NCBI GenBank assembly: GCA_000830275.1
Contig: CP010424.1
Location: 570,001-602,000, forward strand
Direction: 5' to 3'
DNA: 32,000 nucleotides
Source of the DNA: an archaeon GW2011_AR10
Lineage (GTDB): Archaea > Iainarchaeota > Iainarchaeia > Iainarchaeales > GW2011-AR10
Below the pieces are notes generated by a model. That model searched no databases and was not told the DNA's origin. It saw nothing but the letters and a program-made list of their open reading frames with translations. This document shows, piece after piece, positions 2,123-21,870 of this stretch; the first letter of the stretch is position 1; the number at the start of each line of letters is the position of its first letter. The position numbers and the translations under genes are program-made.

Positions 2123-2260
2123 GACCAAGCTTAGCTGTCAAAACGTCTGGGAACCCACGCCTGTGGGCTTGCAGATTAATGCCGTAAATAAGCATATTTT
2201 TAGATATTATTAAAAGTTAATTCAAATTCCATTATAATCAAAGCAAGGGAAGGAACCACT

Positions 2261-4023: not shown

Positions 4024-4040
4024 CTATGGGGGGAATCTGA

Positions 4041-5114
4041 GTGAAAGTGTTGAGCGTTGTAGGGGCAAGACCGCAGTTCATCAAGGAGAAGCCTCTTTCA
4101 GTTGAACTCAGGAAAAAATGCGACGAGGTTTTAGTGCACACTGGCCAGCATTATGACATGGAAATGTCCAGAATTTTTTTTGACGAGCTGAAAATCCCTG
4201 AACCAGACTATAACCTCGGCATTGGCTCTGACACCAGTGCAAGGCAGATTGCAAGGATGATTGCTGCACTGGGTAAAGTGCTGAGAAAAGAGAAGCCTGA
4301 TGCAGTTGTTGTTTTCGGTGACACCAATTCAACTACTGCGGGAGCGCTCGCGGCTTCAGCTGCCGGCATTCAGCTAGCGCACATTGAGGCCGGAATGCGC
4401 TCCTTCAACCTTGAGATGCCGGAGGAAATAAACAGGGTTATTACTGACAATGTTTCCCAGTTACTGTTCGCGCCAACCAAAACAGCGGTGAAAAACCTTG
4501 AACGCGAAAAGCTTTCCGGAAAAATTTTTTTGGTTGGAGACGTTATGTTTGATGCTTTCAGGCAGAACATTGGAATTGCTGAAAAAAAATCAAAAGTACT
4601 CGAGGATAAATGCCTTGAAAGGAAAAAATTTTTTTATCTCACAGTTCACCGTGCTTCGAACACGGACATTAAAAGAAACCTCGCAGGAATTCTGGGCGCG
4701 GTCACGGCAATTGAGGGCACGGTTTTTTTTCCGGTGCACCCTAGGACAGGCAAAGCGTTAAAGGAGCATGGGCTCATGGAAAAACTGAAGAAAAGTGAAA
4801 ACATTGTTTTGTCGAAACCCGTGGGCTACCTTGACTCGCTGGTGTTAACCAAAAACGCAGTAAAGGTTCTAACTGACTCAGGGGGCCTGCAGAAAGAGGC
4901 TTTTTTTGCTGGAACACCCTGTGTTTCTCTTCGCGAGGAAAAGGAGTGGGTTGAAACCTTCCACGGCAACTGGAACATTCTCGCTGGAACGTCAAAGGAA
5001 AAAATAGTTAGAGCAGTGAGAGCAAGGACAAGCGGGAAAAAAGGGGCTTTTTTTGGCAATGGCCATGCGGCAAAAAGAATAGTTAAAATCATTACTGGAT
5101 TAGATTCTTACTGA
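4041..5114 (+). CDS. wecB: UDP-N-acetylglucosamine 2-epimerase (non-hydrolysing)
   Basis: GARPQFIK, HTGQHYD, GDTNST, HIEAGMRS and DSGGLQKEA are classic WecB/MnaA blocks. GTG start follows GGGGGGAA. Confidence 0.9.
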   Translation: MKVLSVVGARPQFIKEKPLSVELRKKCDEVLVHTGQHYDMEMSRIFFDELKIPEPDYNLGIGSDTSARQIARMIAALGKVLRKEKPDAVVVFGDTNSTTAGALAASAAGIQLAHIEAGMRSFNLEMPEEINRVITDNVSQLLFAPTKTAVKNLEREKLSGKIFLVGDVMFDAFRQNIGIAEKKSKVLEDKCLERKKFFYLTVHRASNTDIKRNLAGILGAVTAIEGTVFFPVHPRTGKALKEHGLMEKLKKSENIVLSKPVGYLDSLVLTKNAVKVLTDSGGLQKEAFFAGTPCVSLREEKEWVETFHGNWNILAGTSKEKIVRAVRARTSGKKGAFFGNGHAAKRIVKIITGLDSY

Positions 5115-6103
5115 TGGCTAACAAGAATGTATTGGTTACGGGTGCAGCGGGCTTCATTGGCTCAAACCTTGTTGACAGGTTGCTGAAAGAAGGGTTTGAG
5201 GTAACTGGAATAGATAATCTCTCACAGGGCAGCAGGAGAAACTTGGAGGACGCACTGCGCAACCCTGCTTTCAATTTAGTTGAGGGGGATGTAAGGAACT
5301 TGGAAGTAATTGAAAAAGCAGGAAAAGGCGCTGATTTTTTTGTTCACTTGGCTGCATTCAAAATCCCACGCTATGGAAATGCAATGGATACATTGCAGAT
5401 TAATTCAAAGGGAACTGAGAACATTCTGGAGGCGGCAAAGGAAACCAAGGCAAAGGTTGTGTTTGCTTCAACATCCGATGTTTACGGAAAAAACAGGGAA
5501 CTGCCTTTCAGCGAGGAAAGCAGCTTGGTTATTGGGCCGCCGAATGTAAAGCGCTGGGCTTACGCTGCCTCAAAGATTTTTGATGAGCAGCTGTGCTTTG
5601 CATACAACGAAAAATTTGGTTTGCCTTTTTCAATTGTGAGGTATTTTGGAGGCTATGGCCCAAGACAGCACTTATCATGGTGGGGCGGCCCACAAAGCGT
5701 TTTCATTGAAAAAATATTGAAAGGAGAAAAAGTGCCAGTTCACGGAGACGGAAAACAGAAAAGGAGTTTTACTTTCATTGATGATTTGGTGGAAGGAACT
5801 TTTCTTGCAATGAAATCTGGCAGAGCAAACGGTGAAGTGCTAAACATTGGCAGCAGAGAGGAAAGCTCAATTCTTGGCTTGGCGAAAATGATTGCAAAGC
5901 TTATGGGAAAAGAAAAAGAACTTGAAATAGAGTTTGTGCCGTATGAAACTTTTGGCAAGTACGAGGACGTAAGGAGAAGAGTTCCTTATACAACAAAAGC
6001 AAAAAAATTAATTGGTTTTGAGGCAAAAGTTAAACTAGTGGAGGGCCTGAAAAAAACAATTGGTTGGCAGGAAGCAGTGATGGGGCATGTCAAAAAAAAC
6101 TGA
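5114..6103 (+). CDS. Extended SDR NAD-dependent epimerase/dehydratase, UDP-glucuronate decarboxylase (UXS / ArnA C-terminal)-like
   Basis: VTGAAGFIGSNL, ASTSDVYG and YAASK (YxxxK). TGATG 1-nt overlap with wecB. Confidence 0.8.
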   Translation: MANKNVLVTGAAGFIGSNLVDRLLKEGFEVTGIDNLSQGSRRNLEDALRNPAFNLVEGDVRNLEVIEKAGKGADFFVHLAAFKIPRYGNAMDTLQINSKGTENILEAAKETKAKVVFASTSDVYGKNRELPFSEESSLVIGPPNVKRWAYAASKIFDEQLCFAYNEKFGLPFSIVRYFGGYGPRQHLSWWGGPQSVFIEKILKGEKVPVHGDGKQKRSFTFIDDLVEGTFLAMKSGRANGEVLNIGSREESSILGLAKMIAKLMGKEKELEIEFVPYETFGKYEDVRRRVPYTTKAKKLIGFEAKVKLVEGLKKTIGWQEAVMGHVKKN

Positions 6104-6809
6104 AAAATTTGTTTTAGGAATTATTCCGGCGCGAGGGGCTTCCAAAAGAATTCGTGGAAAAGCATTGGCTTTGCTTGGAGGGAAAAAGCTTCTTTCCTAT
6201 GCAATTGAAGAGGCAAAGAAAAGCAAGTTGCTGAGTGAAGTGATTGTTTCAACTGAAAGCAGTGAAATTGCTTTGGAAGCAAAAAAGCTTGGCGCTCTTG
6301 TGCCGTTCAAGAGGCCTAAAGAGCTGGCGCTGGACGAAACTCCGATGCTACCGGTGCTGAAGCAAGCCGTGATTGAAAGCGAAAAATTCTTCAGCAAAAA
6401 GGTTGACGCTGTAGTGCTATTGCAATTGACTTCTCCATTCAGGAAGGCAAGGCACATTGACGAGGCAGTAAGAATTTTTCTGAAAGGAGGCATTGAAGGC
6501 GTTGTAAGTGTTTCAAGGGCAAAGACTGAACCAAAGTGGATGCTGAAAAAAAAGTCTGGCGTTCTGGAGTTCTATGAAAAAAATGATTTCAGTGCAAGCA
6601 GGAAACAGGATATGAAAGAATTTTTTGAGCTAAACGGTGCAGTTTACGTTTTTTCCAGAGAAACAGTAATGAATTCAAAGGGTTATGCTTGGGGAAAAAG
6701 GATTGCGGCTTATGAAATGGACAAAATCAGTTCTATTGATATTGATGAACCAATTGACTTGGAGATTGCCAATGCTTTGCTTAGGGCGGGTTTGAATGAA
6801 AACGATTAG
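6087..6809 (+). CDS. neuA: CMP-nonulosonic acid synthetase (acylneuraminate cytidylyltransferase family; NeuA/LegF-like)
   Basis: GIIPARGASKRIRGKA is the cytidylyltransferase P-loop-like block. It is about 240 aa and overlaps the upstream gene by 17 nt. Confidence 0.85.
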   Translation: MSKKTEKFVLGIIPARGASKRIRGKALALLGGKKLLSYAIEEAKKSKLLSEVIVSTESSEIALEAKKLGALVPFKRPKELALDETPMLPVLKQAVIESEKFFSKKVDAVVLLQLTSPFRKARHIDEAVRIFLKGGIEGVVSVSRAKTEPKWMLKKKSGVLEFYEKNDFSASRKQDMKEFFELNGAVYVFSRETVMNSKGYAWGKRIAAYEMDKISSIDIDEPIDLEIANALLRAGLNEND

Positions 6810-7854
6810 AATCGGCAGAAAAGAAATTGGCGAGGGAAAACCATGCTTTGTTATCGCTGAAGCCGGAGTAAACCACAACGGAAAAGTAAGCATAGCAAAG
6901 AAACTGGTTGATGCAGCAGTGCAGGCAAGAGCTGATGCAGTAAAATTCCAGTCATTCAAAACAGAGGAGCTGGTGGAAAAGGGAACGGCTAAGCCTGCTT
7001 ATCAGTCAAAGGCTTTGGGAAAAAAGATTTCTCAGGACGAAATGATTAAGTCATTGGAGTTAAAGGAAAAAGATTTCAGGGAGCTGCTCGGTTACTGTAA
7101 AAGGCAGGGAATAATTTTTCTTTCAACGCCGTTTGACTTTGAGAGCGCTGACATGCTTGAAAAAATTGGTGTGAGCGCTTTCAAGATTGGTTCTGGTGAA
7201 ATAACAAACCACCCGTTAATAGAGCATATTGCGGCAAAGAAAAAGCCTGTTCTGCTTTCCACAGGAATGGCTTTCATGAGTGAGGTGGCAGAAGCAGTAG
7301 AGCTTGTTAAAAAAATAAACCAGAAACTGGTTTTAATGCAGTGCACCTCATCCTATCCTGCAAAAACAGAAAACGCTAACTTGCTCGTGTTACATGAGTA
7401 CATGAAAAGGTTCAACTGCATTGTTGGCTACAGCGACCACACGCTCGGCATTAACTCGGCTCTTGCAGCGGTTGCGCTAGGCGCAAAAGTTGTTGAAAAG
7501 CACATCACGATTGACAGGGCAATGAGGGGGCCAGACCACAAGGCTTCAACTGAACCCAACGAAATGAGAAAATTGGTGGAGGCAATCAGAGAAGTTGAGG
7601 CTTCGCTTGGAGTAAAAGAGAAAAAGCCTATTGGAAAAGAAATGGAGTTGAGGAAGCTGGCGAGGAAAAGCATTTTTGCCAGAATTAAAATAAATAAGGG
7701 TGAGCGGATCAGTAAAAGAATGCTCAAAATTGTTCGGCCGGCTGAAGGCATCCAGCCAAAATTTTTTTCAAGGGTTATTGGGAGCATTGCTGCCAGAAAC
7801 ATTCCTACTGGAAAACCAGTAAAAAAAATTGATTTGAGTGGATTCTATGAATAA
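6796..7854 (+). CDS. neuB: Nonulosonic acid synthase (N-acetylneuraminate synthase family with C-terminal SAF domain; NeuB/LegI-like)
   Basis: CFVIAEAGVNHNG, AVKFQSF and YSDHTLG, plus a C-terminal SAF-like segment (SIFARIKINKGERIS...). Overlaps the upstream gene by 14 nt. Confidence 0.9.
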   Translation: MKTIRIGRKEIGEGKPCFVIAEAGVNHNGKVSIAKKLVDAAVQARADAVKFQSFKTEELVEKGTAKPAYQSKALGKKISQDEMIKSLELKEKDFRELLGYCKRQGIIFLSTPFDFESADMLEKIGVSAFKIGSGEITNHPLIEHIAAKKKPVLLSTGMAFMSEVAEAVELVKKINQKLVLMQCTSSYPAKTENANLLVLHEYMKRFNCIVGYSDHTLGINSALAAVALGAKVVEKHITIDRAMRGPDHKASTEPNEMRKLVEAIREVEASLGVKEKKPIGKEMELRKLARKSIFARIKINKGERISKRMLKIVRPAEGIQPKFFSRVIGSIAARNIPTGKPVKKIDLSGFYE

Positions 7855-9034
7855 ACTGCCCGCTGTTCTTGGGGGAAAACCAGCATTTGGGAAACCTGTG
7901 CCTATTACGCTGCCAACGCTTCCAAGCTTTGAAAGGGTCTCTAAAATGGCTGAAGGGATTTTTTCAACCGGCATGATAACCAACCACGTTTTTGTGAGAG
8001 AGTTTGAAGAAAAAACTGCAGAGCACCTGTGTGTTAAGCATGCTGTTGCTGTTTCATCCTGCACTTCTGGCTTAATGCTTTTAATGAAGGCACTTGAATT
8101 GAAAGGAGAAATCATTTTGCCATCCTTTACTTTTAATGCAACCGGAACAGCACTGCTTTGGAACAATTTGGAGCCTGTTTTTGTTGACATTGACAGTGAA
8201 ACATTCAACTTAAACCCTGCAAGGGTTGAAGAAGCAATTACTAAAAAAACTGCTGCAATTCTTGCAGTGCACGTTTTCGGCAATCCTGTTGACGTGAAAA
8301 GCCTTCAAGAAATTGCAGAGAGAAAAAGTGTTCCGCTTATTTTTGATTCTGCACATGCTTTCGGAGCAAGCGTTAAAGGAAAAATGGTTGGCGGTTTTGG
8401 AGATGCAGAGGTTTTCAGCTGCTCTCCTACAAAGTTGATTAATTCCGGCGAGGGCGGCATAATTTCAACTAACAATGGAATGCTTGCTGAAAAATTAAAG
8501 GTTCTCAGAAACTATGGCGTGCTCCCTGATTATGACTGCGAACAAGCAGGTTTGAATTCCAGAATGCCTGAACTTAATGCCATTCTTGGCATTGAATCCT
8601 TAGCGATTCTTAATCAAAACTTGAGAAAAAGGCTGGAACTTGTTGAAATGTACAAGCGAGGGCTTAAGAAGATTGCAGGAATAAGTTTTCAGAGGATTGA
8701 AGAAGGAAGTAAAAGCTGTTACAAGGATTTCTCAATCGTGGTTGACAAGAAAGAATTTGGTATTGACAGGAACGGCTTAAACCTTGCTTTGGAGAAGGAA
8801 AACATTGTTTCAAAGAAATATTTTTTCCCGCCACTGCACAGGCAAAAAATTTTTTCAAGATACTTTGAAAGGTTTGACAGCATATTGCCTGAAACCAATT
8901 ATGTTTCAGAAAACGCTTTGAGCCTGCCGCTTTACTCTCACATGAGCAGAAAAGAAGTTGAAGGCATTGTTTCATGCGTTTCAGCAATTCATGATAATTC
9001 TGAAAAGGTTTTGGAGATGCTTCCTAATGCCTGA
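7847..9034 (+). CDS. DegT/DnrJ/EryC1/StrS family PLP-dependent sugar aminotransferase
   Basis: FSCSPTKLINSGEGGI contains the PLP-lysine block. The fold-type-I layout is typical. ATG at 7847 gives an ATGAATAA overlap with the neuB stop. The track start at 7838 is GTG. Confidence 0.85.
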   Translation: MNKLPAVLGGKPAFGKPVPITLPTLPSFERVSKMAEGIFSTGMITNHVFVREFEEKTAEHLCVKHAVAVSSCTSGLMLLMKALELKGEIILPSFTFNATGTALLWNNLEPVFVDIDSETFNLNPARVEEAITKKTAAILAVHVFGNPVDVKSLQEIAERKSVPLIFDSAHAFGASVKGKMVGGFGDAEVFSCSPTKLINSGEGGIISTNNGMLAEKLKVLRNYGVLPDYDCEQAGLNSRMPELNAILGIESLAILNQNLRKRLELVEMYKRGLKKIAGISFQRIEEGSKSCYKDFSIVVDKKEFGIDRNGLNLALEKENIVSKKYFFPPLHRQKIFSRYFERFDSILPETNYVSENALSLPLYSHMSRKEVEGIVSCVSAIHDNSEKVLEMLPNA

Positions 9035-10436
9035 GAAAAGACTTGAGAAGTTTCTTGTTTTCCCGGAGGATTCAATTAAGGAGACCATGAGAAAAGTTGA
9101 CTTGAATGGTTTTGGGATTGCCTTGATAACCAACCACGAAAAAAAACTTCTTGGAATTGTTACTGATGGGGACATCAGGAGAGCAATACTTAAGGGCACT
9201 GACATTGGTGAAAAGGTTGAAGGCATAATGAACAGGAACCCTGTTTATGCTTTTGAAGGCGCATCAAAGAGAGAGTTACTTTCACTTGTCAGGCGCCACA
9301 ATGTTGTGGAAAAAATTCCTATTTTGGGAAAAAACCTTACAGTAAAAGACATTGCAATCTTTTCCAATATTGAGGAGGGAAACCCTCTTTACATTAGCAT
9401 GGAAAAGAAGACTGCGCCATTAGTAAGAAAAGTCCTGGTAATAGGGGGGGCAGGCTATCTTGGCTCGGTTCTTGTCAGAAAGCTTTTGGAAAAAGGTTTT
9501 TTTGTAAGGGTACTTGACAACCTTACTTTTGGGAACGATGGCATAAAGGAGCTCTTTTCCAATAACCGCTTTGAATTCTTTGAGGGTGACATCAGGAAAA
9601 TTGATGATGTGGTGAGAGCAATTATTGGCATGGATGCAGTGGTTCATCTAGCTGCAATTGTGGGCGATTCTGCTTCCTCCATTGAACCAATTTCAACTGT
9701 TGAAACCAATTACCTTGCAACAAAGCTTATAGCTGAAACATGCAAGCACCATCAGGTTAACAGGCTGGTTTTTGCCTCAAGCTGTTCGGTTTACGGAGCA
9801 AACAGTTATGTGGCTGATGAGAGCACTGAACTGAACCCTGTCTCGCTTTACGCGAGAACAAAAATCAAGTCAGAGGAAGGCTTGCTTGAAATGAGTGACG
9901 AGAATTTTGCTCCGTGCATTTTGAGGATGGCAACTCTGTTCGGTGTTTCACCGAGAATGCGGTTTGACTTAGTTGTTAACCTGCTAACTGCAAAGGCACT
10001 AAACGAAAAAGAGATAACAATTTTTGGCGGAAACCAGTTCAGGCCGTTAGTGCATGTTGAGGATGCAGCGCAGGCCTACATTGATTGTCTTCGCGCACCG
10101 ATTGAAAAAATCAGGGGCCAAGTTTTCAATGTTGGGGCTGACAGCGGCAACTACCGAATCATTGACCTCGGCAGAAAAATCAAGGAGCTTGTTCCAGAAG
10201 CAAAACTTGTCGTGGAAAAAAAAGAAGAGGGCGACATTAGAACCTACAAGGTCTCTTTTGAAAAAATTTCCAAAGAACTTGGCTTTGCAGCAAGAAAAAC
10301 TGTTGATAACGGAGTAAAGGAAATAAGGGCTGCATTCGAGGAAGAATTGTTTGATGATTACTCAAGCGAAAAATACAGTGTTTACAGTTACTTAAAGAAA
10401 AATGTGTTTGGCAAGAGGGGTGCTTCCAATGAGTGA
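9027..10436 (+). CDS. CBS-pair (Bateman) domain fused to an extended SDR NAD-dependent sugar epimerase/dehydratase
   Basis: The N-terminal ~125 aa carry two CBS motifs (GIVTDGDIRRAIL ... KIPILGKNLTVKDIAIFSNI). These are followed by VIGGAGYLGSVL, ASSCSVYG and YARTK. ATG at 9027 overlaps the upstream stop (ATGCCTGA). The longer track ORF from 8958 is rejected. Confidence 0.8.
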   Translation: MPEKRLEKFLVFPEDSIKETMRKVDLNGFGIALITNHEKKLLGIVTDGDIRRAILKGTDIGEKVEGIMNRNPVYAFEGASKRELLSLVRRHNVVEKIPILGKNLTVKDIAIFSNIEEGNPLYISMEKKTAPLVRKVLVIGGAGYLGSVLVRKLLEKGFFVRVLDNLTFGNDGIKELFSNNRFEFFEGDIRKIDDVVRAIIGMDAVVHLAAIVGDSASSIEPISTVETNYLATKLIAETCKHHQVNRLVFASSCSVYGANSYVADESTELNPVSLYARTKIKSEEGLLEMSDENFAPCILRMATLFGVSPRMRFDLVVNLLTAKALNEKEITIFGGNQFRPLVHVEDAAQAYIDCLRAPIEKIRGQVFNVGADSGNYRIIDLGRKIKELVPEAKLVVEKKEEGDIRTYKVSFEKISKELGFAARKTVDNGVKEIRAAFEEELFDDYSSEKYSVYSYLKKNVFGKRGASNE

Positions 10437-10848
10437 GGAGAGGTTTGAGAAATGGGTGATGCCAAAAATTGAGGAAAAAAAGCTTCACCCAAAATATTTT
10501 TTTCTTGTTCAATACAAGCATAACCTGAAACTCGGAGTAAAAACTGATATCGGGGCTTTCAATTACATTAACGCAAAAAACGGTGTGGAAATTGGTGATT
10601 TCGTGCAAATAGGCTCGCACTGCTCAATTTACAGTGATTCAACAATTGACAACAAAAAAGGAAAAGTTGTTCTGAAAAAAAATGCAAGAATTGGAAGCCA
10701 CAGCGTTGTGATGCCTGGCGTCACTGTGGGGGAGAACTCAATTATTGGGGCGTTAAGTTTTGTCAACAAAGATATTCCTGCAAATGTATTGGCTTTCGGC
10801 ATTCCGGCAAAAGTTGTTAGGAAGCTCAAGCAGGAAGAACTTGAATGA
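10429..10848 (+). CDS. Left-handed beta-helix (hexapeptide repeat) acyl/acetyltransferase
   Basis: Hexapeptide periodicity in IGDFVQIGSHCSIYSDSTID...ARIGSHSVVMPGVTVGENSIIGALSFV. ATG at 10429 overlaps the upstream stop (ATGAGTGA). Confidence 0.75.
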   Translation: MSEERFEKWVMPKIEEKKLHPKYFFLVQYKHNLKLGVKTDIGAFNYINAKNGVEIGDFVQIGSHCSIYSDSTIDNKKGKVVLKKNARIGSHSVVMPGVTVGENSIIGALSFVNKDIPANVLAFGIPAKVVRKLKQEELE

Positions 10849-10858
10849 GTCAATAAAA

Positions 10859-12007
10859 ATGAAAAAAGTCTGCGTTACAACTGGTTCAAGGTCGGATTAT
10901 GGCATTCTTTCCCAAGTTATGAAAGAAATCAGAAAGAGCAAAGAGCTTGAGCTTGAAATTGTTGCAGCAGGCTCTCATCTTGAGGAAACATTCGGCTACA
11001 CTTACAAAGAAATAGAGCGGGATGGCTTTATTATTGATAAAAAAGTTAGGATTCCGCTTGCGTTTTCTTCAAACAAGGAAATGGCTAGTGCAACAGGTGA
11101 AGCAGTAAGAGGCTTTTCAGAGGCTTTCAGTGAAATAAAGCCTGACTTGGTGTTGGTTCTTGGCGACAGGTTCGAGGTTTTTGCAGCAGTCATTGCTGCT
11201 TACTATCAATTGATTCCTGTTGCGCACATTCACGGCGGTGACAAGTCAACTGGTGGCAGCCTTGACGACAGTGTCAGGCACGCAATTACAAAGCTTTCTC
11301 AAATTCATTTTGTTGCCTCGCGTAAAAGCTTTGAAAGGGTTAAAAAGCTTGGAGAGGAAGAGCACAGAATTCACTTGGTTGGTTCGCCGGCAGTTGACAT
11401 GATTCTGTCAACTAAAAAAATTTCCAGAGAGGAATTAAACAAAAAGTTTGGACTAAAAAATGAGCCATACACTGTTGTAATACAGCACCCTATAACAAGC
11501 AATGTTGGGGAAGCAGGCGCACAGATGAGGGAAACAATGGAGGCAGTTAAAAGCATTGGATTGCAGGCAGTTGTTGTTTACCCCAACGCTGATGCCGGAG
11601 GAAAAAAAATCATTGAAGAAATTGAGAAATACTCTAAGCTGCCTTTTGTGAAAGTTTTCAAGTCCGTTCCATTCAAGGATTACGTTCAGCTGTTAATGCA
11701 TTCGTCCTGCCTTGTCGGCAATAGCAGCGGAGCGCTGATTGAAACGCCTTCACTGCACATTCCTGCTGTCAATATTGGGCCAAGGCAAAATGAAAGGGAA
11801 AAGTCAGAGAATGTAATTGATGCCCCACATGACAGAAGAGAAATTGAGGCAGCAATTAGGAAGGCTTTGTTTGACAAGGAGTTCAAGAAAAAAGTTGAGA
11901 ATTGCAAAAATCCTTATGGCATAGGAAAAAGCTCAAAAAAAATTGTTGAAATACTGGAAAAAACAGAAATCAATGAGGGATTAATAAGGAAAAAACTTGC
12001 TTACTAG
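10859..12007 (+). CDS. neuC: UDP-N-acetylglucosamine 2-epimerase (hydrolysing), NeuC/LegG-like
   Basis: VTTGSRSDYGIL, AAGSHLEETFGYTYKEIERDGF and HIHGGDKSTGGSLDDSVRHAITKLSQIHF are NeuC-type blocks. ATG at 10859 lies just after the acetyltransferase stop. Confidence 0.85.
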   Translation: MKKVCVTTGSRSDYGILSQVMKEIRKSKELELEIVAAGSHLEETFGYTYKEIERDGFIIDKKVRIPLAFSSNKEMASATGEAVRGFSEAFSEIKPDLVLVLGDRFEVFAAVIAAYYQLIPVAHIHGGDKSTGGSLDDSVRHAITKLSQIHFVASRKSFERVKKLGEEEHRIHLVGSPAVDMILSTKKISREELNKKFGLKNEPYTVVIQHPITSNVGEAGAQMRETMEAVKSIGLQAVVVYPNADAGGKKIIEEIEKYSKLPFVKVFKSVPFKDYVQLLMHSSCLVGNSSGALIETPSLHIPAVNIGPRQNEREKSENVIDAPHDRREIEAAIRKALFDKEFKKKVENCKNPYGIGKSSKKIVEILEKTEINEGLIRKKLAY

Positions 12008-12152: not shown

Positions 12153-13040
12153 TTGGATAATGTAATCGTAATGTACCACTATGTGCAGGACAACACTGGA
12201 TTCAAAGCGTTTTCAAAGCAAGAATTCAGGGAACAAGTGCAGTACCTTAAAGAAAGATACAAAATAATCTCTTTGCAGGAACTCGTGGAAAAAAAGCCTC
12301 AAGGCAAGACATGCGTTCTCACGTTTGACGACGGAATTAAAGACGGATTTACAACAGCACTTCCAATACTTGAAGAAGAGGGCCTTAATGGAACTTTCTT
12401 TGTTCCAACAAAAATTTTTATGGAGAAAAAGCTGCTTGGAGCGCAGAAAAGGCACCTGTTACTGGCAAAGCTTGGAACAAAAAAGTTTGTTGAAGAATTC
12501 AATAAAATTGCAGACAATGTTTTTCAAGTAAAAAAAGAAGGAAAGAAAAACGAGTACGACGACGAACTGACATCAAACCTTAAATTCATGCTAGATAACA
12601 TGGACCAGAGAAAAGCAAATGCCATTTTGGATAGGATTTTCAGCAAGCGCTTCAATGAAAAAGAAGAGTTCGAAAAAATTTACCTAAGCTCAAAGGAAGT
12701 AAAAAGATTAGTTGGAAAAGGAATGGAGGTAGGAAGCCACGGGCATGCGCACCTGTGGCTTGGCAAGCTCCCTTTCAAGGACATGGAAGCAGACTTGGTG
12801 AAATCAGTTGAGGTTTTCAATAATGTGTTCTCAATGCACCCAAGAGTAATGTCTTACCCTTTTGGAAGCTACTCTCTTTTTACAAGGAGGCTAGCTGAAA
12901 AACTTGGTTTCATAGCGGCCGTTACAACAGCGAAAAAGAAAAATATAAGCCTAGAAAGCCCCTTAGAGCTAGGCAGGTATGACTGCATTGACCTGTTTCC
13001 AAGGAAAACCAAGGAAAAGTCGAGAAAGATTCTAAGCTAG
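12153..13040 (+). CDS. Polysaccharide deacetylase (NodB homology domain)
   Basis: VLTFDDGIKDG and GSHGHAH NodB motifs. TTG start lies 4 nt behind AGGTGA. An alternative ATG is at 12171. Confidence 0.8.
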   Translation: MDNVIVMYHYVQDNTGFKAFSKQEFREQVQYLKERYKIISLQELVEKKPQGKTCVLTFDDGIKDGFTTALPILEEEGLNGTFFVPTKIFMEKKLLGAQKRHLLLAKLGTKKFVEEFNKIADNVFQVKKEGKKNEYDDELTSNLKFMLDNMDQRKANAILDRIFSKRFNEKEEFEKIYLSSKEVKRLVGKGMEVGSHGHAHLWLGKLPFKDMEADLVKSVEVFNNVFSMHPRVMSYPFGSYSLFTRRLAEKLGFIAAVTTAKKKNISLESPLELGRYDCIDLFPRKTKEKSRKILS

Positions 13041-13055
13041 CAATATTGCGAAACA

Positions 13056-14174
13056 CTAATCAAAATAACTCTCCAATTTGCTATCCCTAACCGTATCCAG
13101 CGTATTGCAGTGAATTCCGCCCATATAATATGAGTGCCTGAAGCTTATTGGAATGACTTTCAATTTGTATTTTTCCAAAGTTTGAATTAGTTTTGTTTGT
13201 CTTTTATCAACAATCACTGTTTCCGGGTCAATAGACAATATGTTCATGCCAATCCACTCGGAAGCCATGTCACCAAGATCGCTTTCAACTCCAAGCTTTA
13301 GTAGCTTTTGGTGTACTTTGCTTCTTACATTTCTCTGGAAGTCAACGGTTTCTTTTGGGTGAGGCATTATATCATTGAAATAAATCTTTTCCCATTTGTC
13401 CAAAATTTTTGGGCAAGTTTTTTGGTTTACTCGGAAGCCATTTAAAAGCACTAGGCCGGGCCTCAAACATAAAACAGTGGAATCAATATGACTTGAGCGA
13501 TATATCTTGTCAGTGGTATGAACCCTGTATTCTTCGCCCAAAATGCTTTGCAGCCATTTGGCTGCAAGATAATTGCCTGACTTCGAAACCAAATACAAGA
13601 TGTCTTTTCCCATCCTGGCAGTGTTGGCAGCCTCAAAAAGAATTTCGTTTTCAGCCAATTTAAACAATACTTTATCAAATTCCCTCTCAACATCATGAAA
13701 GGGCACCATGTAATCCCCAATTAGTTTTGCTTTTGGGGCAGATATCCAGCGGAAACCCTCCTCAAAATAATGGTACCAAACATCGTAGAGTGCCATTGCC
13801 TCGTAATACCTGTACCTATTATAGGTGGGAGATTCTATTACAGTATCACCAACCACCAAATGGTGGTCCCGCATATTGTAACAATCGGAGCCAACCGCAG
13901 CCCAGTGGGGGGTTGAAAAAAACTTGTTCACATCGCCAGTATTTGGTCTGAATACTTTAGCTCCGTGGCTCTTAAGCACACCACACAGCTCTTCCAGGTC
14001 CTCGCTTACTTCGTTTACAAGCCATTCAGGATATGCGTCTTGGGCTAATTTGAATGCCTTTTCTTTGGTTTTATCATCAACAGGCCGGAAAAGAGTAAGA
14101 CTGGCCATTGTCTTAGTTCTGCCAACAATTATTTCTCTTAGTCTGTCCCACTCATTATGGCTATTAATTTTCAT
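13056..14174 (-). CDS. Amidinotransferase family protein (glycine / inosamine-phosphate amidinotransferase-like)
   Basis: NEWDRLREIIVG (compare NEWDPLEEVIVG as I recall it from human AGAT), SSHIDST (catalytic His region) and C-terminal MGGIHCNTLD (catalytic Cys region). The length and overall block order match AGAT/StrB1. Confidence 0.8.
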   Translation of the reverse strand: MKINSHNEWDRLREIIVGRTKTMASLTLFRPVDDKTKEKAFKLAQDAYPEWLVNEVSEDLEELCGVLKSHGAKVFRPNTGDVNKFFSTPHWAAVGSDCYNMRDHHLVVGDTVIESPTYNRYRYYEAMALYDVWYHYFEEGFRWISAPKAKLIGDYMVPFHDVEREFDKVLFKLAENEILFEAANTARMGKDILYLVSKSGNYLAAKWLQSILGEEYRVHTTDKIYRSSHIDSTVLCLRPGLVLLNGFRVNQKTCPKILDKWEKIYFNDIMPHPKETVDFQRNVRSKVHQKLLKLGVESDLGDMASEWIGMNILSIDPETVIVDKRQTKLIQTLEKYKLKVIPISFRHSYYMGGIHCNTLDTVRDSKLESYFD

Positions 14175-14520: not shown

Positions 14521-15576
14521 ATGAAAAAAATGATTTTGTTCGGCTGCGGCGGCTCGGCAGGAATCAATTTTGTTAAATCATTGCGGCTTTGCAGGGAAAA
14601 AGTGAAAATTATTGGGTTTGACATAAATAGGTACTACATTGAGCTTTCGCCAGTTGACCAGCGCTACTTAATTCCAGCCATAAAGCAGCGTTCATCAGAA
14701 ACAATTGACAAGGTAAATGAACTGATAAAAAAAGGGGGGATTGATTTTGTTCACGCGCAGCCCGACCCAGAAGTAGGATATGTTTCAGAACACAGGGAAA
14801 AATTCAATGCAAAAACTTTTTTTCCTTCAAAAGAAGCCGTAAAAATCTGCCACGACAAAATGGAGTCCTACAAGACTTGGAAAAGTAAGGGAGTGCCTGT
14901 TGCAAAAACAATTCAAATTCAAAACGAGGGTTCGCTTGAAAAAGTTTTCAATGAGCTTAAGGGAACCGTGTGGATTCGCGCATCAAAGGGAGCCGGAGGA
15001 AAAGCAAGTTTGCCTGTTGACAGTGTTGATGAAGCCAGAATGTGGATAAGGTTCTGGACAAAATATGGTTTGATGTGGAATGATTTTATTGCAAGCGAGT
15101 TTTTGCCTGGAGAAGAAATTGCATGGAACAGTGTTTGGGCTGATGGAAAGCTGTTGTGCTCTCAGGGGAGAATCAGAATTGAGTGGGTTCAAGCTGGGTT
15201 GAGTCCGAGCGGCGTTACTGGCACAACAGCAATACAGAAAACAGTTCATGACGACAGCATCAATGAAATTGCCACAAAGGCAATTGAGGCAGTGGATAAA
15301 AAGCCTAACGGCATATTTTCAGTTGACATAAAACAGGACCCTGAAGGAAACCCGAAAGTAACTGAAATTAACCCCGGAAGATTTTCTACAACATCGCTTT
15401 TCTTTTCAACTTATGGAGTGAACATGCCTGAAATTTATTTGAAAGCAGCTTATGGAGAGAAAATTAAGGGGGTTTCTCCCTATAATTCAGTTGAAAAGGA
15501 CGTTTACTGGATTAGGATTCCAGATGGCGGCCCAGTTATGGTAAAAGGGGATGACTGGAAAAGCAAGCCGCTTTAA
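14521..15576 (+). CDS. ATP-grasp family ligase
   Basis: WIRASKGAGGKAS (glycine-rich ATP loop), EFLPGEE and KVTEINPGRFS (Mg/ATP-binding E-x-N). It is about 350 aa with a pre-ATP-grasp Rossmann-like N-terminus. Confidence 0.7.
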   Translation: MKKMILFGCGGSAGINFVKSLRLCREKVKIIGFDINRYYIELSPVDQRYLIPAIKQRSSETIDKVNELIKKGGIDFVHAQPDPEVGYVSEHREKFNAKTFFPSKEAVKICHDKMESYKTWKSKGVPVAKTIQIQNEGSLEKVFNELKGTVWIRASKGAGGKASLPVDSVDEARMWIRFWTKYGLMWNDFIASEFLPGEEIAWNSVWADGKLLCSQGRIRIEWVQAGLSPSGVTGTTAIQKTVHDDSINEIATKAIEAVDKKPNGIFSVDIKQDPEGNPKVTEINPGRFSTTSLFFSTYGVNMPEIYLKAAYGEKIKGVSPYNSVEKDVYWIRIPDGGPVMVKGDDWKSKPL

Positions 15577-15589
15577 CTTTAATTCTCTT

Positions 15590-16312
15590 ATGCTTGATAG
15601 TATGCAGGCAAAAGCAGTGATTTTTGATTACCATGGCACGCTTGTTGATCCATGGAAGCGATACCTAGAATCTTTTTCGCAGGCAATGAAAAAATGCTGC
15701 AATTCGGCTGTTACTGATAGGGAATTCATAAAAGAACAGCGGAGAGCAGGCACTCCAACACATAAAATATTGGAGAGCATTTTAAAAAAATCGGGTTTTC
15801 CTCAGTCCTCAGAGCTCATAGAAGAAATTAACAATTATAGAAGGACCCTTGTTTCCAGTCCTGATTTTTTTAGGGAAAACCCTGACACATTAATTGAAAG
15901 CGCAAAAGAAACTCTGCAAAAGATGAAGAAACAGGGAGCAAAGCTTTTTCTGGTTTCATTAATTCCACTTTTAGACCATTCAGAAGAGAGAAAAATAAAA
16001 AAACTTATACATAATCAGTTGGTGGCTTATGAACTGGAAAAAGAATTCAGCGAGGTTTTCATTGAAATAACTCCTTATGGAAAAAAATTCGGCAACGTCA
16101 AGCTAAACGCTTTCAAGAAAATTAATGAAAAAAACGGTTTTTCTTCTAATGAATGCGTTGTTGTGGGAGACTCTGAAATCGAGCTTAATGCCGGAAAAAC
16201 ACTCGGAATGAAAACAGTAGGCGTTCTAACTGGAATGAGCAGCAGGGAGAGGCTAGAAAAATTAAAGGTTGACAGAATAATAGGGTCGGTTGCAGAACTG
16301 GAACTTTTTTAG
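15590..16312 (+). CDS. HAD superfamily hydrolase (phosphoglycolate phosphatase/HAD-IA-like) with a variant motif I
   Basis: Motif I is VIFDYHGTLVD. Motif IV is VVGDSEIELNAG. A cap-domain-length insert lies between them. ATG at 15590 or 15602. The track start at 15551 overlaps the ATP-grasp gene. Confidence 0.75.
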   Translation: MLDSMQAKAVIFDYHGTLVDPWKRYLESFSQAMKKCCNSAVTDREFIKEQRRAGTPTHKILESILKKSGFPQSSELIEEINNYRRTLVSSPDFFRENPDTLIESAKETLQKMKKQGAKLFLVSLIPLLDHSEERKIKKLIHNQLVAYELEKEFSEVFIEITPYGKKFGNVKLNAFKKINEKNGFSSNECVVVGDSEIELNAGKTLGMKTVGVLTGMSSRERLEKLKVDRIIGSVAELELF

Positions 16313-17931
16313 CCGAACCACTTTGCCCTGTACTGAATAGGAATGTCAATTAATGTGTGCTCTCCCGACCTAAGAGCTTCCCTAAAAATTCTTTTTAGTT
16401 CATCGTTTTTTCCGGGCCTAAATGTTTTGAAACCATAGGACTCACCGAGCTTCAGAAAATCAGGGTTTTCTGCTTCCACTTCATAAGTTGTGCCGGAAGA
16501 AATCTGCTGGTTGTGTCTGATCAAGCCATAGCCTCCATCATTAAACACTACAGCCATAAACGGCAAATCAAGCCTCTTGGAAGTGTTAAGCGGTCCTGGC
16601 AACATATTCAAGCCGCCGTCACCCAAAACAGCAATTACGTTTCCTTTATCCCCAGTGTGTTTTTGGTAAAGTTTTGCAGCATTGGCTGCAGGCAAAGCAA
16701 AAGCCATTGTGGAAAATCCGTTGGAGAACAGCACACGGTTTCTTGAAACAGGGTTAAACATCAGGCCAACGTACTGCTTGTGCAATCCAACATCGCATGT
16801 TAAAATGTCATCCGGGCCAACGGCTTCACCCAATGCTTTAAGAACCTGCTGTGGCCAGAAAGGAAAAGCGCTTCCGTCAGAAAAGTCAAGGATTTTATGC
16901 AGTTTCTCTCTTTCCTCTTTTGGGTCAATTAACTTCTTCCCCGCCTTGAAATTCTTTCCTGCGCTGCTAGTGAGGAACTGCAAATACTTCTTTACGTTAC
17001 CTGTCAACTCAACGTGCGGTCTGTAAAATTCCTTTGAATTGTGGGGCGTGGCATCAATGTGCAGAACTTTTGGCTCAGGCATTGTCTTCCAAGTTGATGG
17101 CTTGACCCCCTCAGCATAGTCGTAACCCAAAGCAATCAAGAGATCAGATCTTTTGAATATTTCCTCATAAATGCTAAGGTGCCTGCTGACTGTGCCTATG
17201 AAAAGAGGGTGATCAGAGGAAATAGAATTTTTTCCGTGAAAAGAAGTAATGACAGGAATGTTGAATTTTTCTGCAAACTTTTTCAGTTCCTCGTGGGCTC
17301 CAAGCCTGTTGACAATCCCGCCTGCAAGTATTAGCGGGCTTTTTGAATTCCTTATCAGCTCGGCTGCAAAATGCAGAATCGAATCATCATAGCCCAGTTC
17401 TTTTGTTGGAAGCCTTTCAGAACGCTGTTCTGGAAAATCCCCTTTCAACGCGTCCCTGACAACAGTAATGTGAACAGGCCCTGGCCTTTCAGACTTAGCT
17501 ATGGAAAAAGCAAGGGAAATGACATTAGGAATACTGTCATGCGGCTTCAAAGTTGTTGAGCGCTTTGTTACAGGCGCCATTACTTTCTCAATGTCAATGA
17601 ATTGATGCGACCCCTCCACACAGTCCTCCAATGGCAGCTGGTCGCTTAAAGCAACAACAGGCGAGTAATCCTGCTTTGCGTTTGCAAGACCGCTGACAAG
17701 GTTTGTTGCTCCCGGTCCAAGAGTTGAAAAGCAAACTCCCGGCTCTTTTGAGAGCCTCCCCCAAGCGTCAGCCATTATTGCTGCTTCATGCTCATGCCTG
17801 ACTGTAATGAACTTGATGCTTGACTCCTTCAGGTCTGCAGGCAGGCTTGTAAGGTCATCTCCAAAAAGGCCGAAAATGTATTTAACGCCCTGCTCTTCCA
17901 AGGATTTTACCAGAAGCCGGGAACCCCTCAT
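16309..17931 (-). CDS. Thiamine-diphosphate-dependent enzyme, acetolactate synthase large subunit-like (three-domain)
   Basis: N-terminal Pyr domain (VRHEHEAAIMADAWGR, GPGATN). C-terminal ThDP motif VLGDGGLNM...VVFNDGGYG. The stop overlaps the HAD stop (TTAG). Confidence 0.85.
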   Translation of the reverse strand: MRGSRLLVKSLEEQGVKYIFGLFGDDLTSLPADLKESSIKFITVRHEHEAAIMADAWGRLSKEPGVCFSTLGPGATNLVSGLANAKQDYSPVVALSDQLPLEDCVEGSHQFIDIEKVMAPVTKRSTTLKPHDSIPNVISLAFSIAKSERPGPVHITVVRDALKGDFPEQRSERLPTKELGYDDSILHFAAELIRNSKSPLILAGGIVNRLGAHEELKKFAEKFNIPVITSFHGKNSISSDHPLFIGTVSRHLSIYEEIFKRSDLLIALGYDYAEGVKPSTWKTMPEPKVLHIDATPHNSKEFYRPHVELTGNVKKYLQFLTSSAGKNFKAGKKLIDPKEEREKLHKILDFSDGSAFPFWPQQVLKALGEAVGPDDILTCDVGLHKQYVGLMFNPVSRNRVLFSNGFSTMAFALPAANAAKLYQKHTGDKGNVIAVLGDGGLNMLPGPLNTSKRLDLPFMAVVFNDGGYGLIRHNQQISSGTTYEVEAENPDFLKLGESYGFKTFRPGKNDELKRIFREALRSGEHTLIDIPIQYRAKWFG

Positions 17932-18002
17932 ATTAAATCAGCCAATACTCTTAATACGTAAAACCAAATAAAAGCTTGTTTATATTAATTTTTAGTTGGT
18001 TT

Positions 18003-19364
18003 ATGGAAAAAAAAAGCTTCATTTTCAGGGTTCTTTCAAGGATTTTGCCTGAAAACAAGAGGGAACCTGAATTTGTTTCAAGCATTTCAATGTGGCTTCT
18101 GGCCGGCCTGCTACTGCACCTTATTTTGTTGCCTTTTGCTTTTCACTCAGATTTTTTATACATACACGGCAGTGCTTTCCAGTTATCGCATAATGGCGTA
18201 ATAAACATTTACAGTTATCTAGAAGAAAACAACTTGTGTGAAGGACTTGAAAATGCGTGCTTTGGTTATCCTCCCATAACATATTTTTTCTTTGGTGCGA
18301 CACAATTTATTGCAAAACCATTGCTGATAAATTTTGAAGAATGGGTTGACAGCATTGTTGAACTCCACAACAAAGAAGGTGTGCAGGAACTATTTTTTGG
18401 GTTTAACTCGAGCAACTGGAATGCGCTTCTTTTGAAACTTCCTTACCTTTTCTTTGACTTTGGTATTGCAGTAATTCTTCTGCATTTAATTGAAGACAAA
18501 AAGAAAGCAATTTTTGCAATGGTTTTCTGGCTCTTTAATCCAGTGGTTATTTATTCGCCTTTTCTTTTCTCGCAGTTTGACATAATCCCTGTCTTTTTTA
18601 TTGCGCTTGCATTGCTTTTCGCAAAAAAAGGAAAAGATATTGAGGCAATGGTTTCGCTAGGAATTGGTTTCGCATTCAAGCTTTTTCCAGTTCTCCTAAT
18701 ACCAATCGCTGCAATTATTTTGGGAAAAAAATTTTTTAGAACCATAAAACTAGGTTTAGTCGGAATTGCGCCTTTCATCATTGCTTCAATTCCTTTTTTC
18801 TTTACCCCAATTTACTGGAAGAGCCTGTTCGGCGCAAGCACAACCCCTTATGTTGTGCTTCCGCTGGGGATTTTTTTGTCAAGGCTTTTTGAAATGAATT
18901 TTGGGCTTGGAGTGCTTGAAAATACTCCGATATTCCATTTAGGGTATTTTCTGATAATTGCGCTTGTATGGGTTAAGAGAAAGTCGCCTAGGGAAGAACT
19001 GTACAAATATTTTTTGCTTGTTTTCTTTTGGCTTTTCATTTTTATTTTTATGAGACCGCATTACTTCATCTGGATTATTCCAACGCTTGCCATGTTCATT
19101 GCAAATGAAAAAAAATATTTACTGCCAAGCATTCTTCTGATAATTTTTTATGTGATTGCATTTATTCTGCCGTTTGATTACATGACCTGGGAATTGTTCT
19201 ACATAACTGACAAAGCATTTTTTTCATCGCTTCCAATGCCGGGAGCACTAATTGACTTGTTTTTTCCCTTTCCAATTTTTTACAGGCTCTCAAGAGTTTT
19301 TTTTGTTCTAACTAGTTTCTGGTTTGTTTTAGAATTATTAAAGAAAAAACAAAAAGGAAATTGA
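18003..19364 (+). CDS. Polytopic membrane protein, GT-C fold glycosyltransferase-like (DUF2029/GT87-like)
   Basis: More than 10 hydrophobic segments. The N-terminal loop HSDFLYIHGSAF...NIYSY...FGYPPITYFFFG resembles the DUF2029 signature (D..Y...YPP). FKLFPVLLIP block present. ATG at 18003 is preferred over TTG at 17976. Confidence 0.5.
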   Translation: MEKKSFIFRVLSRILPENKREPEFVSSISMWLLAGLLLHLILLPFAFHSDFLYIHGSAFQLSHNGVINIYSYLEENNLCEGLENACFGYPPITYFFFGATQFIAKPLLINFEEWVDSIVELHNKEGVQELFFGFNSSNWNALLLKLPYLFFDFGIAVILLHLIEDKKKAIFAMVFWLFNPVVIYSPFLFSQFDIIPVFFIALALLFAKKGKDIEAMVSLGIGFAFKLFPVLLIPIAAIILGKKFFRTIKLGLVGIAPFIIASIPFFFTPIYWKSLFGASTTPYVVLPLGIFLSRLFEMNFGLGVLENTPIFHLGYFLIIALVWVKRKSPREELYKYFLLVFFWLFIFIFMRPHYFIWIIPTLAMFIANEKKYLLPSILLIIFYVIAFILPFDYMTWELFYITDKAFFSSLPMPGALIDLFFPFPIFYRLSRVFFVLTSFWFVLELLKKKQKGN

Positions 19365-19368
19365 TTCC

Positions 19369-20145
19369 ATGAGAATTGTGAGAATATTCATTGTCAGCAT
19401 GGAGGAACCGTTTTTTCTCCCGGGTTTTTTTGAGAAAATCATTGAGAAAAACAGGGAAAAAATTGTTGGAATGACTGTCTTGCCACCAAAAGAAAGCCTC
19501 GTGAAAATTATGCTAAATGAAATCAGGGTCAATGGTTTAGGGAATTTTTCAATAAAGGGGCTGAAATTTGCTTACTTGAAATCAGTGGATTTTTTTGGAA
19601 ATTTTCTCCAGCAAAAAAAGGTTTATTCACTCAGAGGCCTTGCAAAAAAATATTCAATTCCGGTAATTGAAACGCGCAACGTTAACGATGAAAAGTATAT
19701 CGAAAAACTTCAAGGCATTAATCTAGACCTAATTATTGCGCAGTCCCCCCAAGTTTTCAGCAAGAAACTGCTAGAGGTAGCAAAAATCGGGTGCATTAAC
19801 AAGCATGCCTCGCTTCTCCCAAAATACAGGGGGTTGCACCCAATAGTGTGGGCTATTGCAAACGGTGAAAAAGAAATCGGAGTAACAGTCCACTTTATGG
19901 AGGAAAAAGTTGATTCCGGTCCTGTAATCGCACAAAAAAGTTTTAGGCTAAAAAAAGGCGACACAATTGACAAACTTTATGAAAAGGTATTTAAGGAGGC
20001 GGCAGTTTTGATAATTAAAGCAATAAAGGATATTGAGGAAAAGAAATTAAGAACGTTCAGGCAAAAAGGAAAGGGCAGCTATTATTCTGTGCCAGATAAA
20101 GAGACTATTGTTAAATTCAGGAAAAACTTGGCTGGGCTGAAATGA
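19369..20145 (+). CDS. Formyltransferase (Fmt/ArnA N-terminal/PurN family), probable sugar N-formyltransferase
   Basis: INKHASLLPKYRG (N-x-H-x-SLLPxxRG) and EEKVDSGPVIAQ (catalytic Asp region). No Fmt tRNA-binding C-terminal domain is evident. It overlaps the next gene by ATGA. Confidence 0.8.
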   Translation: MRIVRIFIVSMEEPFFLPGFFEKIIEKNREKIVGMTVLPPKESLVKIMLNEIRVNGLGNFSIKGLKFAYLKSVDFFGNFLQQKKVYSLRGLAKKYSIPVIETRNVNDEKYIEKLQGINLDLIIAQSPQVFSKKLLEVAKIGCINKHASLLPKYRGLHPIVWAIANGEKEIGVTVHFMEEKVDSGPVIAQKSFRLKKGDTIDKLYEKVFKEAAVLIIKAIKDIEEKKLRTFRQKGKGSYYSVPDKETIVKFRKNLAGLK

Positions 20146-21056: not shown

Positions 21057-21097
21057 AACTTAAATTTATTATTGCGAGTAAATTTTTAGGTGATTGG

Positions 21098-21829: not shown

Positions 21830-21870
21830 CGGGATACGTTTAATACGGTTTTGCAGCTAAAATTCAATTA

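Follow-up and report, generated by a model that had tools for sequence, protein, structure and literature searches.

A Glu-triad amidinotransferase in a legionaminic-acid-type locus of a DPANN archaeon, a candidate enzyme for guanidino nonulosonic acids

We analysed a window of 32,000 nucleotides from the archaeon GW2011_AR10 (contig CP010424.1, positions 570,001 to 602,000), in which a predicted amidinotransferase gene, here called AMID (13056..14174, minus strand; ATG start, 372 aa), lies beside genes for nonulosonic acid (NulO) biosynthesis. A first-pass annotation, made from the DNA letters alone, had read this gene as an amidinotransferase of the glycine amidinotransferase/StrB1 type in an archaeal surface-glycan locus. 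The open reading frame is real, and its translation contains every sequence block quoted for that reading (NEWDRLREIIVG, residues 7-18; SSHIDST, 227-233; MGGIHCNTLD, 350-359). That the DNA is archaeal holds too. Two proteins of the window match AJF60170.1 and AJF60163.1 of GW2011_AR10 without a difference, on a contig of 1.24 Mb, their mates in 90% clusters are named Candidatus Diapherotrites/Iainarchaeum, and Iainarchaeum is placed in the DPANN archaea (Nanobdellati). The AR10 locus recurs on 13 metagenomic contigs.

The plus strand carries the NulO genes in a close run. They encode a LegB-like NAD-dependent 4,6-dehydratase of the short-chain dehydrogenase/reductase (SDR) type (5114..6103), a CMP-nonulosonate cytidylyltransferase (6087..6809; PF02348, with PseF as the best NCBIfam model, below its cutoff), a NeuB/LegI-type nonulosonic acid synthase (6796..7854; TIGR03569, 422 bits against a cutoff of 399.65), a DegT/LegC/PseC-type sugar aminotransferase (7847..9034), a fusion of a CBS domain with an SDR of the dehydratase/epimerase type (9027..10436), a hexapeptide-repeat sugar N-acetyltransferase that is LegH/NeuD-like (10429..10848; 139 aa) and a NeuC/LegG-like hydrolysing UDP/GDP-GlcNAc-type 2-epimerase (10841..12007; TIGR03568, 439.6 bits against a cutoff of 235.9), whose start at 10841 is taken from the gene calls. 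Judged by homology, this is a complete legionaminic-acid-type pathway. On one population contig the NeuC-like epimerase (window 10841-12007) is split into pieces of 202 aa and 185 aa (L025, 12168-13330), and it is intact (388 aa) in the window and on three other contigs (L026, 12168-13334); the split suggests that the pathway is inactivated at the strain level or that the contig is misassembled.

Next to AMID lies PDA_1, a predicted cytoplasmic CE4 (NodB-type) de-N-acetylase (12153..13040, plus strand; PF01522). The two genes are convergent, with their 3' ends 15 bp apart. On the other side, and divergent from AMID, stands an ATP-grasp ligase with a PylC-like N-terminal domain (14521..15576, plus strand), which together with a HAD phosphatase and an acetolactate-synthase-like thiamine pyrophosphate (TPP) enzyme occupies positions 14521-17931. 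This trio recurs only on contigs of the AR10 lineage and may add a further N-acyl group. The TPP enzyme also matches a 5-guanidino-2-oxopentanoate decarboxylase model, below its cutoff.

A phmmer search of AMID against all PDB sequences, listing matches up to E = 10, returns only amidinotransferases: StrB1 (1bwd; E = 9.5e-72), SxtG (3.5e-54), HsvA (2.7e-44) and human arginine:glycine amidinotransferase (AGAT; ~1e-43). The alignments cover residues 3-372 apart from one insertion, so that the whole-length homology to glycine amidinotransferase, at first aligned by eye, is far beyond chance. No chain of arginine deiminase (ADI) or dimethylarginine dimethylaminohydrolase (DDAH) is found among these matches up to E = 10. 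Curated family models do not cover the AMID clade, and what they return from Pfam and NCBIfam is weak and C-terminal: PF02274 (ADI) is the only Pfam match, at 25 bits over the C-terminal 90 residues, and NCBIfam gives sub-threshold arcA matches only. AMID has no match to TIGR03573, the PP-loop ATP-pyrophosphatase model of the WbuX type.

The predicted fold points the same way. An AlphaFold2 model built from a 32-sequence alignment (mean pLDDT 86, pTM 0.87) has the pentein (beta/alpha propeller) fold, and a Foldseek search of the PDB finds amidinotransferases nearest to it. StrB1 is the best match (E = 1.7e-33, TM 0.80/0.85), followed by SxtG, HsvA and AGAT at about 1e-29; the top seven matches, with E from 1e-28 to 1e-33, all belong to these four enzymes. 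DDAH and ADI reach only about 1e-10, with TM of about 0.55. From sequence and model we assign AMID to the amidinotransferase family, AGAT/StrB1 type (EC 2.1.4.-).

Comparison of the active site, with residues matched by HMMER alignment in StrB1 chain numbering and with residue roles that we take from crystal-structure work on AGAT and StrB1, reveals an almost fully conserved set. The nucleophile (StrB1 C332, AGAT C407) aligns with Cys356, the catalytic histidine (StrB1 H227, AGAT H303) with His229, and the guanidinium-binding Asp pair with Asp103 (StrB1 D108, AGAT D170) and Asp231 (StrB1 D229, AGAT D305). Asp103, His229, Asp231 and Cys356 are invariant among 120 close homologues. AGAT R322 and S355, the residues that hold the arginine/ornithine carboxylate, align with Arg248 and Ser305; in a 32-sequence alignment the former is invariant and the latter is at least 90% conserved. 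AMID is very likely an active arginine-dependent amidinotransferase, since the nucleophile, the general base, the guanidinium clamp and the donor site are all intact and purifying selection on the clade is strong.

The triad acid differs. In AMID it is Glu181, within the motif FEAAN, and it is Glu in 117 of the 120 close homologues, whereas it is Asp in StrB1 (D179) and AGAT (D254), within the motif FDAA[DN], and likewise in SxtG and HsvA. In the hydrolases ADI and DDAH the equivalent acid is Glu. Three positions further on, AMID (Asn184) and StrB1-type enzymes have Asn, and AGAT, SxtG and HsvA have Asp. The Asp-His-Cys triad foreseen by the first-pass annotation thus stands for Cys356 and His229, both aligned and invariant, but not for the acid. 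Because the remaining 3 of the 120 clade members and an entire NulO-linked sister clade use Asp, Glu and Asp appear to be interchangeable at this position in the AMID context, and on the alignment the Asp-to-Glu replacement is a conservative change and the sole departure from the family.

We then placed AMID in a neighbour-joining tree of 122 full-length sequences and bootstrapped a 65-sequence subset 200 times. The Glu-triad clade that holds AMID has 82% support and its core 99.5%; together with a small Asp-triad sister clade it forms a group with 100% support that excludes StrB1. AGAT, SxtG and HsvA make up a separate clade (99.5%), a 'DDQHDC' clade has 100% support, and StrB1-like sequences form a paraphyletic grade. 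StrB1 as the sister of the AMID clade plus its sister clade was considered and set aside, this grouping occurring in only 25% of bootstrap replicates. A phylogeny had been proposed earlier to decide between sugar/inositol-acting and amino-acid-acting relatives; it does put AMID on an amidinotransferase branch, but with neither StrB1 nor the AGAT-type clade. Because of this separate placement, AMID is, as judged from the tree, an orthologue of neither StrB1 nor AGAT and belongs to a distinct, strongly conserved clade. In sum, sequence, predicted fold and phylogeny support the original family assignment. Of the two outcomes named beforehand as speaking against it, neither is seen: no triad residue is missing, the acid being conservatively replaced, and the protein falls among the ADI/DDAH branches in none of the three.

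This clade is widespread and poorly labelled. More than 1,200 homologues are found at E <= 1e-10, and the top 120 are full-length and 58-99% identical to AMID, most of them with no label or named 'hypothetical', 'glycine amidinotransferase' or 'DDAH'. The clade itself is tight, at about 60-77% identity, and an exhaustive search of 50%-identity representatives shows a drop in score: only four reach at least 340 bits and the rest at most 268 bits, StrB1 itself scoring 245. Genome homologues, all from metagenome-assembled or single-amplified genomes, come from Omnitrophota, Gammaproteobacteria, 'Deltaproteobacteria', Rokubacteria, Binatia, Pirellulales, Dehalococcoidia/SAR202, Bdellovibrionota and Pelagibacteraceae, and from Patescibacteria of the candidate phyla radiation (CPR), namely Giovannoni-, Yanofsky- and Harrisonbacteria, Saccharibacteria and Paceibacterota. 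DPANN archaea carry members as well. AMID is nested among sequences from bacterial phyla and has a close copy in a second DPANN archaeon, a pattern that fits horizontal spread of the module described below between groundwater CPR bacteria and DPANN archaea. Relatives in a plasmid collection are distant (at most 41% identity, mostly Streptomyces StrB1-like). Phage relatives are more distant still, at 23-28% identity, in the large Campylobacter phages CP220 (NC_027997) and CPt10 (NC_027996) and Synechococcus phage S-SCSM2R (PQ898602); some phage homologues adjoin radical-SAM or 2-oxoglutarate-oxygenase genes.

The gene neighbourhood of this clade is conserved in a set of 33 non-redundant loci, which represent more than 12 phyla and are made up of the window, 24 loci from genomes and 8 from metagenomes, the latter reached via homologues. 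A CE4 deacetylase homologous to PDA_1 is present in 25 of the 33 and lies within 300 bp of AMID in 20. S-adenosylmethionine (SAM)-dependent methyltransferases, from several class I subfamilies, are found in 24 loci, again within 300 bp in 20, and NeuB in 24, within 300 bp in 5. Among the window and the 24 genome loci alone, 21 of 25 have the deacetylase partner, at a median of 4 bp from AMID. A CMP-transferase, a NeuC-like epimerase and a DegT aminotransferase are also frequent. No conserved ligase accompanies the module in the 33 loci, and the ATP-grasp gene is absent from the 32 loci other than the window, with no homologue in the 24 bacterial genome loci; this neighbour is specific to the AR10 lineage and may be an extra N-acyl or aminoacyl ligase. 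The module is widespread and conserved, well beyond the single archaeal locus in which the first-pass annotation noticed the amidinotransferase.

Several loci illustrate its organisation. In L030/L031, on a 4.46 Mb contig, a single co-directional operon encodes, in order, a methyltransferase, a GFO protein, a CMP-transferase, an SDR, an unknown gene, NeuB, NeuC, a PglD-like acetyltransferase, the deacetylase, AMID, a PtmE-like CBS-nucleotidyltransferase, LegB and LegC, with the deacetylase and AMID genes overlapping by 4 nt and AMID and the next gene by 1 nt. L034 has the same gene order, with a 243-aa methyltransferase directly past AMID. In the more distant Glu-type member P0149 the run is NeuC, methyltransferase, AMID, CMP-transferase and PtmE-like gene. 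The second archaeon (L032/L033, with genes for TATA-binding protein and ribosomal protein L21e nearby) encodes an AMID 77% identical to that of AR10 in a compact, overlapping AMID-deacetylase-methyltransferase operon. A different elaboration of the module is seen in L035, where four B12-binding radical-SAM genes (1329-7656 and 20067-21113) surround the AMID homologue and an Asn-synthase-like gene overlaps its start.

The partner deacetylases evolve much faster than AMID. In 21 sequences the motif TFDD and two histidines, the metal-binding and catalytic residues of CE4 enzymes, are invariant. Since none has a hydrophobic segment, these proteins are predicted to be cytoplasmic, and soluble sugar precursors are a likelier substrate than an exported polymer. 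PDA_1 aligns with the bacterial partners over 97% of its length (E ~1e-30) and is 47% identical to the deacetylase of the second archaeon. Chance adjacency of PDA_1 to AMID was considered and ruled out, given this full-length alignment and the fact that the 47%-identical partner overlaps the AMID gene of the second archaeon.

The Asp-type sister clade is likewise linked to NulO genes. The sister genes P0151 and P0152 lie between NeuB and CMP-transferase genes in Pse-type clusters (PseC-like DegT, NeuB, the sister amidinotransferase, CMP-transferase, with a PseG-like hydrolase in L029), and P0162 adjoins NeuB and CMP-transferase genes. The loci concerned, L029 and L037/L038 (both with Pse-type clusters) and L039/L040, all place the gene beside these two. 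Two of the three have a methyltransferase close by, and none has a visible acetyltransferase, of the PseH type or otherwise, or a visible deacetylase. This position fits direct amidination of a transaminase-made amine, and these enzymes may replace N-acetylation by N-amidination.

Acetamidino groups on surface sugars are made by other machinery, and the first-pass annotation had set AMID apart from it. The window indeed holds no WbuX, HisH or HisF gene. Six related loci carry AMID besides separate genes for WbuX (283 bits, cutoff 203 bits) and for HisH-like and HisF-like proteins. We therefore find that AMID is no stand-in for the acetamidino machinery: because the two co-occur, AMID does a different job, and the contrast drawn earlier is borne out.

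Taken together, these observations point to a sugar amine as the acceptor, because AMID is embedded in NulO operons and translationally coupled to a cytoplasmic de-N-acetylase. We propose, with a probability of roughly 55%, that AMID remodels a legionaminic-type 5,7-diamino nonulosonic acid with L-arginine as donor and yields a guanidino group. A standard di-N-acetylated legionaminic-type sugar would first be made by the dehydratase, the aminotransferase, the hexapeptide acetyltransferase, the NeuC-like epimerase, the NeuB-like synthase and the CMP-transferase. The cytoplasmic CE4 deacetylase would then strip one N-acetyl group and expose an amine. Cys356 of AMID would take the amidino group from L-arginine as a thiouronium intermediate, with ornithine leaving, and hand it to the exposed amine, so that an acetamido group becomes a guanidino group. 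In most other lineages the adjacent SAM-dependent methyltransferase would N-methylate the new guanidino group, in parallel to creatine synthesis, where AGAT is followed by guanidinoacetate methyltransferase (GAMT); this step is suggested because a methyltransferase accompanies AMID in most loci. In the Pse-type clusters of the sister clade, which lack the acetyltransferase, the amine made by the transaminase could be amidinated directly. The data establish the family, the intact active and donor sites and the conserved gene linkage; from this linkage and known family chemistry we infer the acceptor, which nitrogen (N5 or N7) is modified, the stage of the reaction (free sugar, CMP-sugar or nucleotide-hexose precursor) and the methylation target.

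Several observations weigh against this proposal. In the window, PDA_1 is convergent with AMID and hence not co-transcribed with it, and it is only ~21% identical to the bacterial partners, which share ~44% among themselves. The trio of the second archaeon has no visible adjoining NulO genes, on a contig that is short. The triad acid is the Glu of hydrolases such as ADI and DDAH and not the Asp of characterised amidinotransferases. A methyltransferase of the module type is not found in the window, where only weak partial matches to two generic methyltransferases occur, 10-14 kb off; because no module methyltransferase is adjacent, the AR10 product is probably an unmethylated guanidino sugar. 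The adjoining ATP-grasp, HAD and TPP genes leave room in AR10 for an acceptor on an aminoacyl side chain. Finally, a guanidino nonulosonic acid is not reported in the literature that we searched.

We rank guanidino transfer to the diamino nonulosonic acid above three other explanations. In the first of these, the acceptor of AMID is a small free amine (glycine, beta-alanine, ornithine/lysine or a polyamine), and the resulting guanidino acid, possibly N-methylated in the manner of creatine, is ligated to the deacetylated sugar amine, for which the ATP-grasp neighbour would be the ligase in AR10. AGAT, SxtG and HsvA do act on small amines, the pairing of AMID with a methyltransferase resembles that of AGAT with GAMT, an ATP-grasp ligase does divergently adjoin AMID in the window, and no NulO genes are visible beside the trio of the second archaeon. 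Yet the ATP-grasp gene is missing from the other 32 loci, where no other conserved ligase travels with the module; the closest solved enzyme is StrB1, which is specific for a ring amine, and the FxAAN motif is common to StrB1-type and not to AGAT-type enzymes; and the sister-clade genes appear to stand in for a missing PseH acetyltransferase. We consider this route unlikely, although it survives best of the three.

The second explanation is a sub-variant of our proposal and differs from it in the timing of the reaction only. Here the acceptor is the nucleotide-linked 4-amino-4,6-dideoxy-hexosamine that leaves the DegT aminotransferase, before condensation with phosphoenolpyruvate, so that the guanidino group comes to lie at N7 and the CE4 enzyme would act at another step or on another substrate. 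StrB1, which acts on the ring amine of a phosphorylated cyclitol, offers a precedent resembling the ring amine of a nucleotide sugar, and the sister-clade loci without acetyltransferase and deacetylase would suit it. The Glu-clade loci, however, usually hold a hexapeptide acetyltransferase and a tightly coupled deacetylase, which speaks for acetylation as the first step and remodelling as a later one, and we regard the earlier timing as rather improbable. Least probable is that AMID is a hydrolase (a deiminase or amidinohydrolase) with a Cys-His-Glu triad like that of ADI/DDAH, its substrate being free arginine or a substituent of the amidino or guanidino type: Glu181, in contrast to the Asp of four solved amidinotransferases, is the acid type of ADI/DDAH and the sole Pfam match is the C-terminal ADI model, but similarity to transferases is better by at least 20 orders of magnitude in both sequence and fold, Asp occurs in 3 of the 120 clade members and throughout the NulO-linked sister clade, and coupling to an amine-generating deacetylase suits a transferase and not a hydrolase.

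Remodelling of the diamino sugar leads to a broader and more tentative proposal, to which we give somewhat less than even odds: that natural guanidino and N-methylguanidino nonulosonic acids exist and are made by a portable module of CE4 deacetylase, Glu-triad amidinotransferase and SAM-dependent methyltransferase, spread horizontally in DPANN archaea, CPR bacteria and many phyla of free-living microbes.

Other genes of the window are in keeping with a surface-glycan locus. Positions 17976-23382 (plus strand) hold an Arn-like module for lipid-linked amino sugars, in this case in a DPANN genome, which encodes a GT87-like membrane protein, an ArnA-N-like formyltransferase, an ArnD-like CE4 deformylase/deacetylase (PDA_2), an ArnC-like GT2 glycosyltransferase and a PMT_2/GT-C protein (ArnT/Agl23-like). 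With the complete legionaminic-type pathway, the glycosyltransferases and this module, the surface-glycan reading of the first-pass annotation is well founded. A nucleotide-sugar dehydrogenase homologue of 257 aa (3250-4023, plus strand), flanked by a UDP-GlcNAc 3-dehydrogenase-like gene and a WecB-like epimerase gene, matches the central domain only and is equally short on all contigs; the gene may have been truncated or be decaying. Two further reading frames, for a DUF1616 protein (28829-29449, minus strand) and for a geranylgeranyl reductase (29256-30407, plus strand), overlap by ~190 bp as listed, so that one of the two start codons probably lies further in.

Many microbial surfaces, flagella, pili and S-layers carry nonulosonic acids as their outermost sugars, and the N-substituents of these acids govern charge, antigenicity, recognition by phages and lectins, and resistance to sialidases. 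Our literature searches found nothing that links an amidinotransferase or a guanidino group with nonulosonic, legionaminic or pseudaminic acid, O-antigen, capsule, flagellin glycosylation or CPR, and the main text of a NulO mass-spectrometry survey (PMC8157484) does not mention amidino-type compositions. The kind of enzyme is known; the AMID clade, its Glu triad, the three-gene module and the NulO context are without description in the searched literature. We note that an amidino group (+CH2N2, 42.0218 Da) and an acetyl group (+C2H2O, 42.0106 Da) are by computation only 0.011 Da apart. If our proposal is correct, only high-resolution mass spectrometry would tell guanidino sugars from ordinary Leg5Ac7Ac or Pse5Ac7Ac, which could explain how they escaped routine surveys.

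Guanidino and methylguanidino groups would then be a new class of decoration that gives an anionic sugar an arginine-like group and makes it zwitterionic, and a sialic-acid-like sugar with such a cationic head group would be a natural counterpart of the engineered guanidino group of zanamivir. The decoration is predicted in SAR11 and SAR202 and also in CPR bacteria and DPANN archaea, lineages about whose surface chemistry next to nothing is known and which depend on cell-cell contact for their episymbiosis. The substrates of amidinotransferases would extend from cyclitols, amino acids and polyamines to nine-carbon sugars, the deacetylase-AMID-methyltransferase trio would provide a simple genetic marker with which to find such glycans, and AMID could be used for the chemoenzymatic synthesis of guanidino-sialic-acid analogues.

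Comparison with known systems places this module between several familiar ones. SxtG, CyrA, HsvA and AmtA share AMID's family and its covalent Cys-amidino mechanism, but they fall in the AGAT-type clade and their acceptors are derived from amino acids or are polyamines. PseA/WbuX (WbpG) with its HisH/HisF-like partners, and the archaeal AglXYZ, are found in comparable loci and likewise turn a neutral N-acetyl group on a surface sugar into a cationic amidine-type group. Their fold is unrelated, being that of a PP-loop ATP pyrophosphatase with a glutaminase/cyclase; they replace the carbonyl oxygen of the acetamide by NH, which gives an acetamidino group, and they co-occur with AMID in the six loci described above. 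AGAT has the fold and chemistry of AMID, and its succession by GAMT parallels the adjacency of AMID and a methyltransferase in 20 of 33 loci. It is only ~32% identical to AMID, has the motif FDAAD, uses glycine as acceptor and has neither a sugar context nor a deacetylase partner; the methyltransferases of the module are generic class I enzymes, and the parallel with GAMT is one of reaction logic. The nearest relative in kind is StrB1, the L-arginine:inosamine-phosphate amidinotransferase of streptomycin biosynthesis (EC 2.1.4.2). AMID is not its orthologue in the sense of grouping with it in the tree or lying in an aminocyclitol/aminoglycoside cluster: the genes around it, in the window and in 24 of the 33 loci, are those of nonulosonic-acid biosynthesis (NeuB, NeuC, CMP-transferase, DegT and SDR) where StrB1 has an antibiotic cluster of the aminocyclitol type, its triad acid is Glu where StrB1 has Asp, and it has a helical insertion of ~30 residues (~266-302) that StrB1 lacks. 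StrB1 is nevertheless the best match of AMID in sequence (~43% identity) and in fold, the two have in common the Cys/His/Asp-Asp active site, the Arg/Ser donor site and the FxAAN motif, and the acceptor of StrB1 is an amine on a six-membered polyhydroxylated cyclitol ring.

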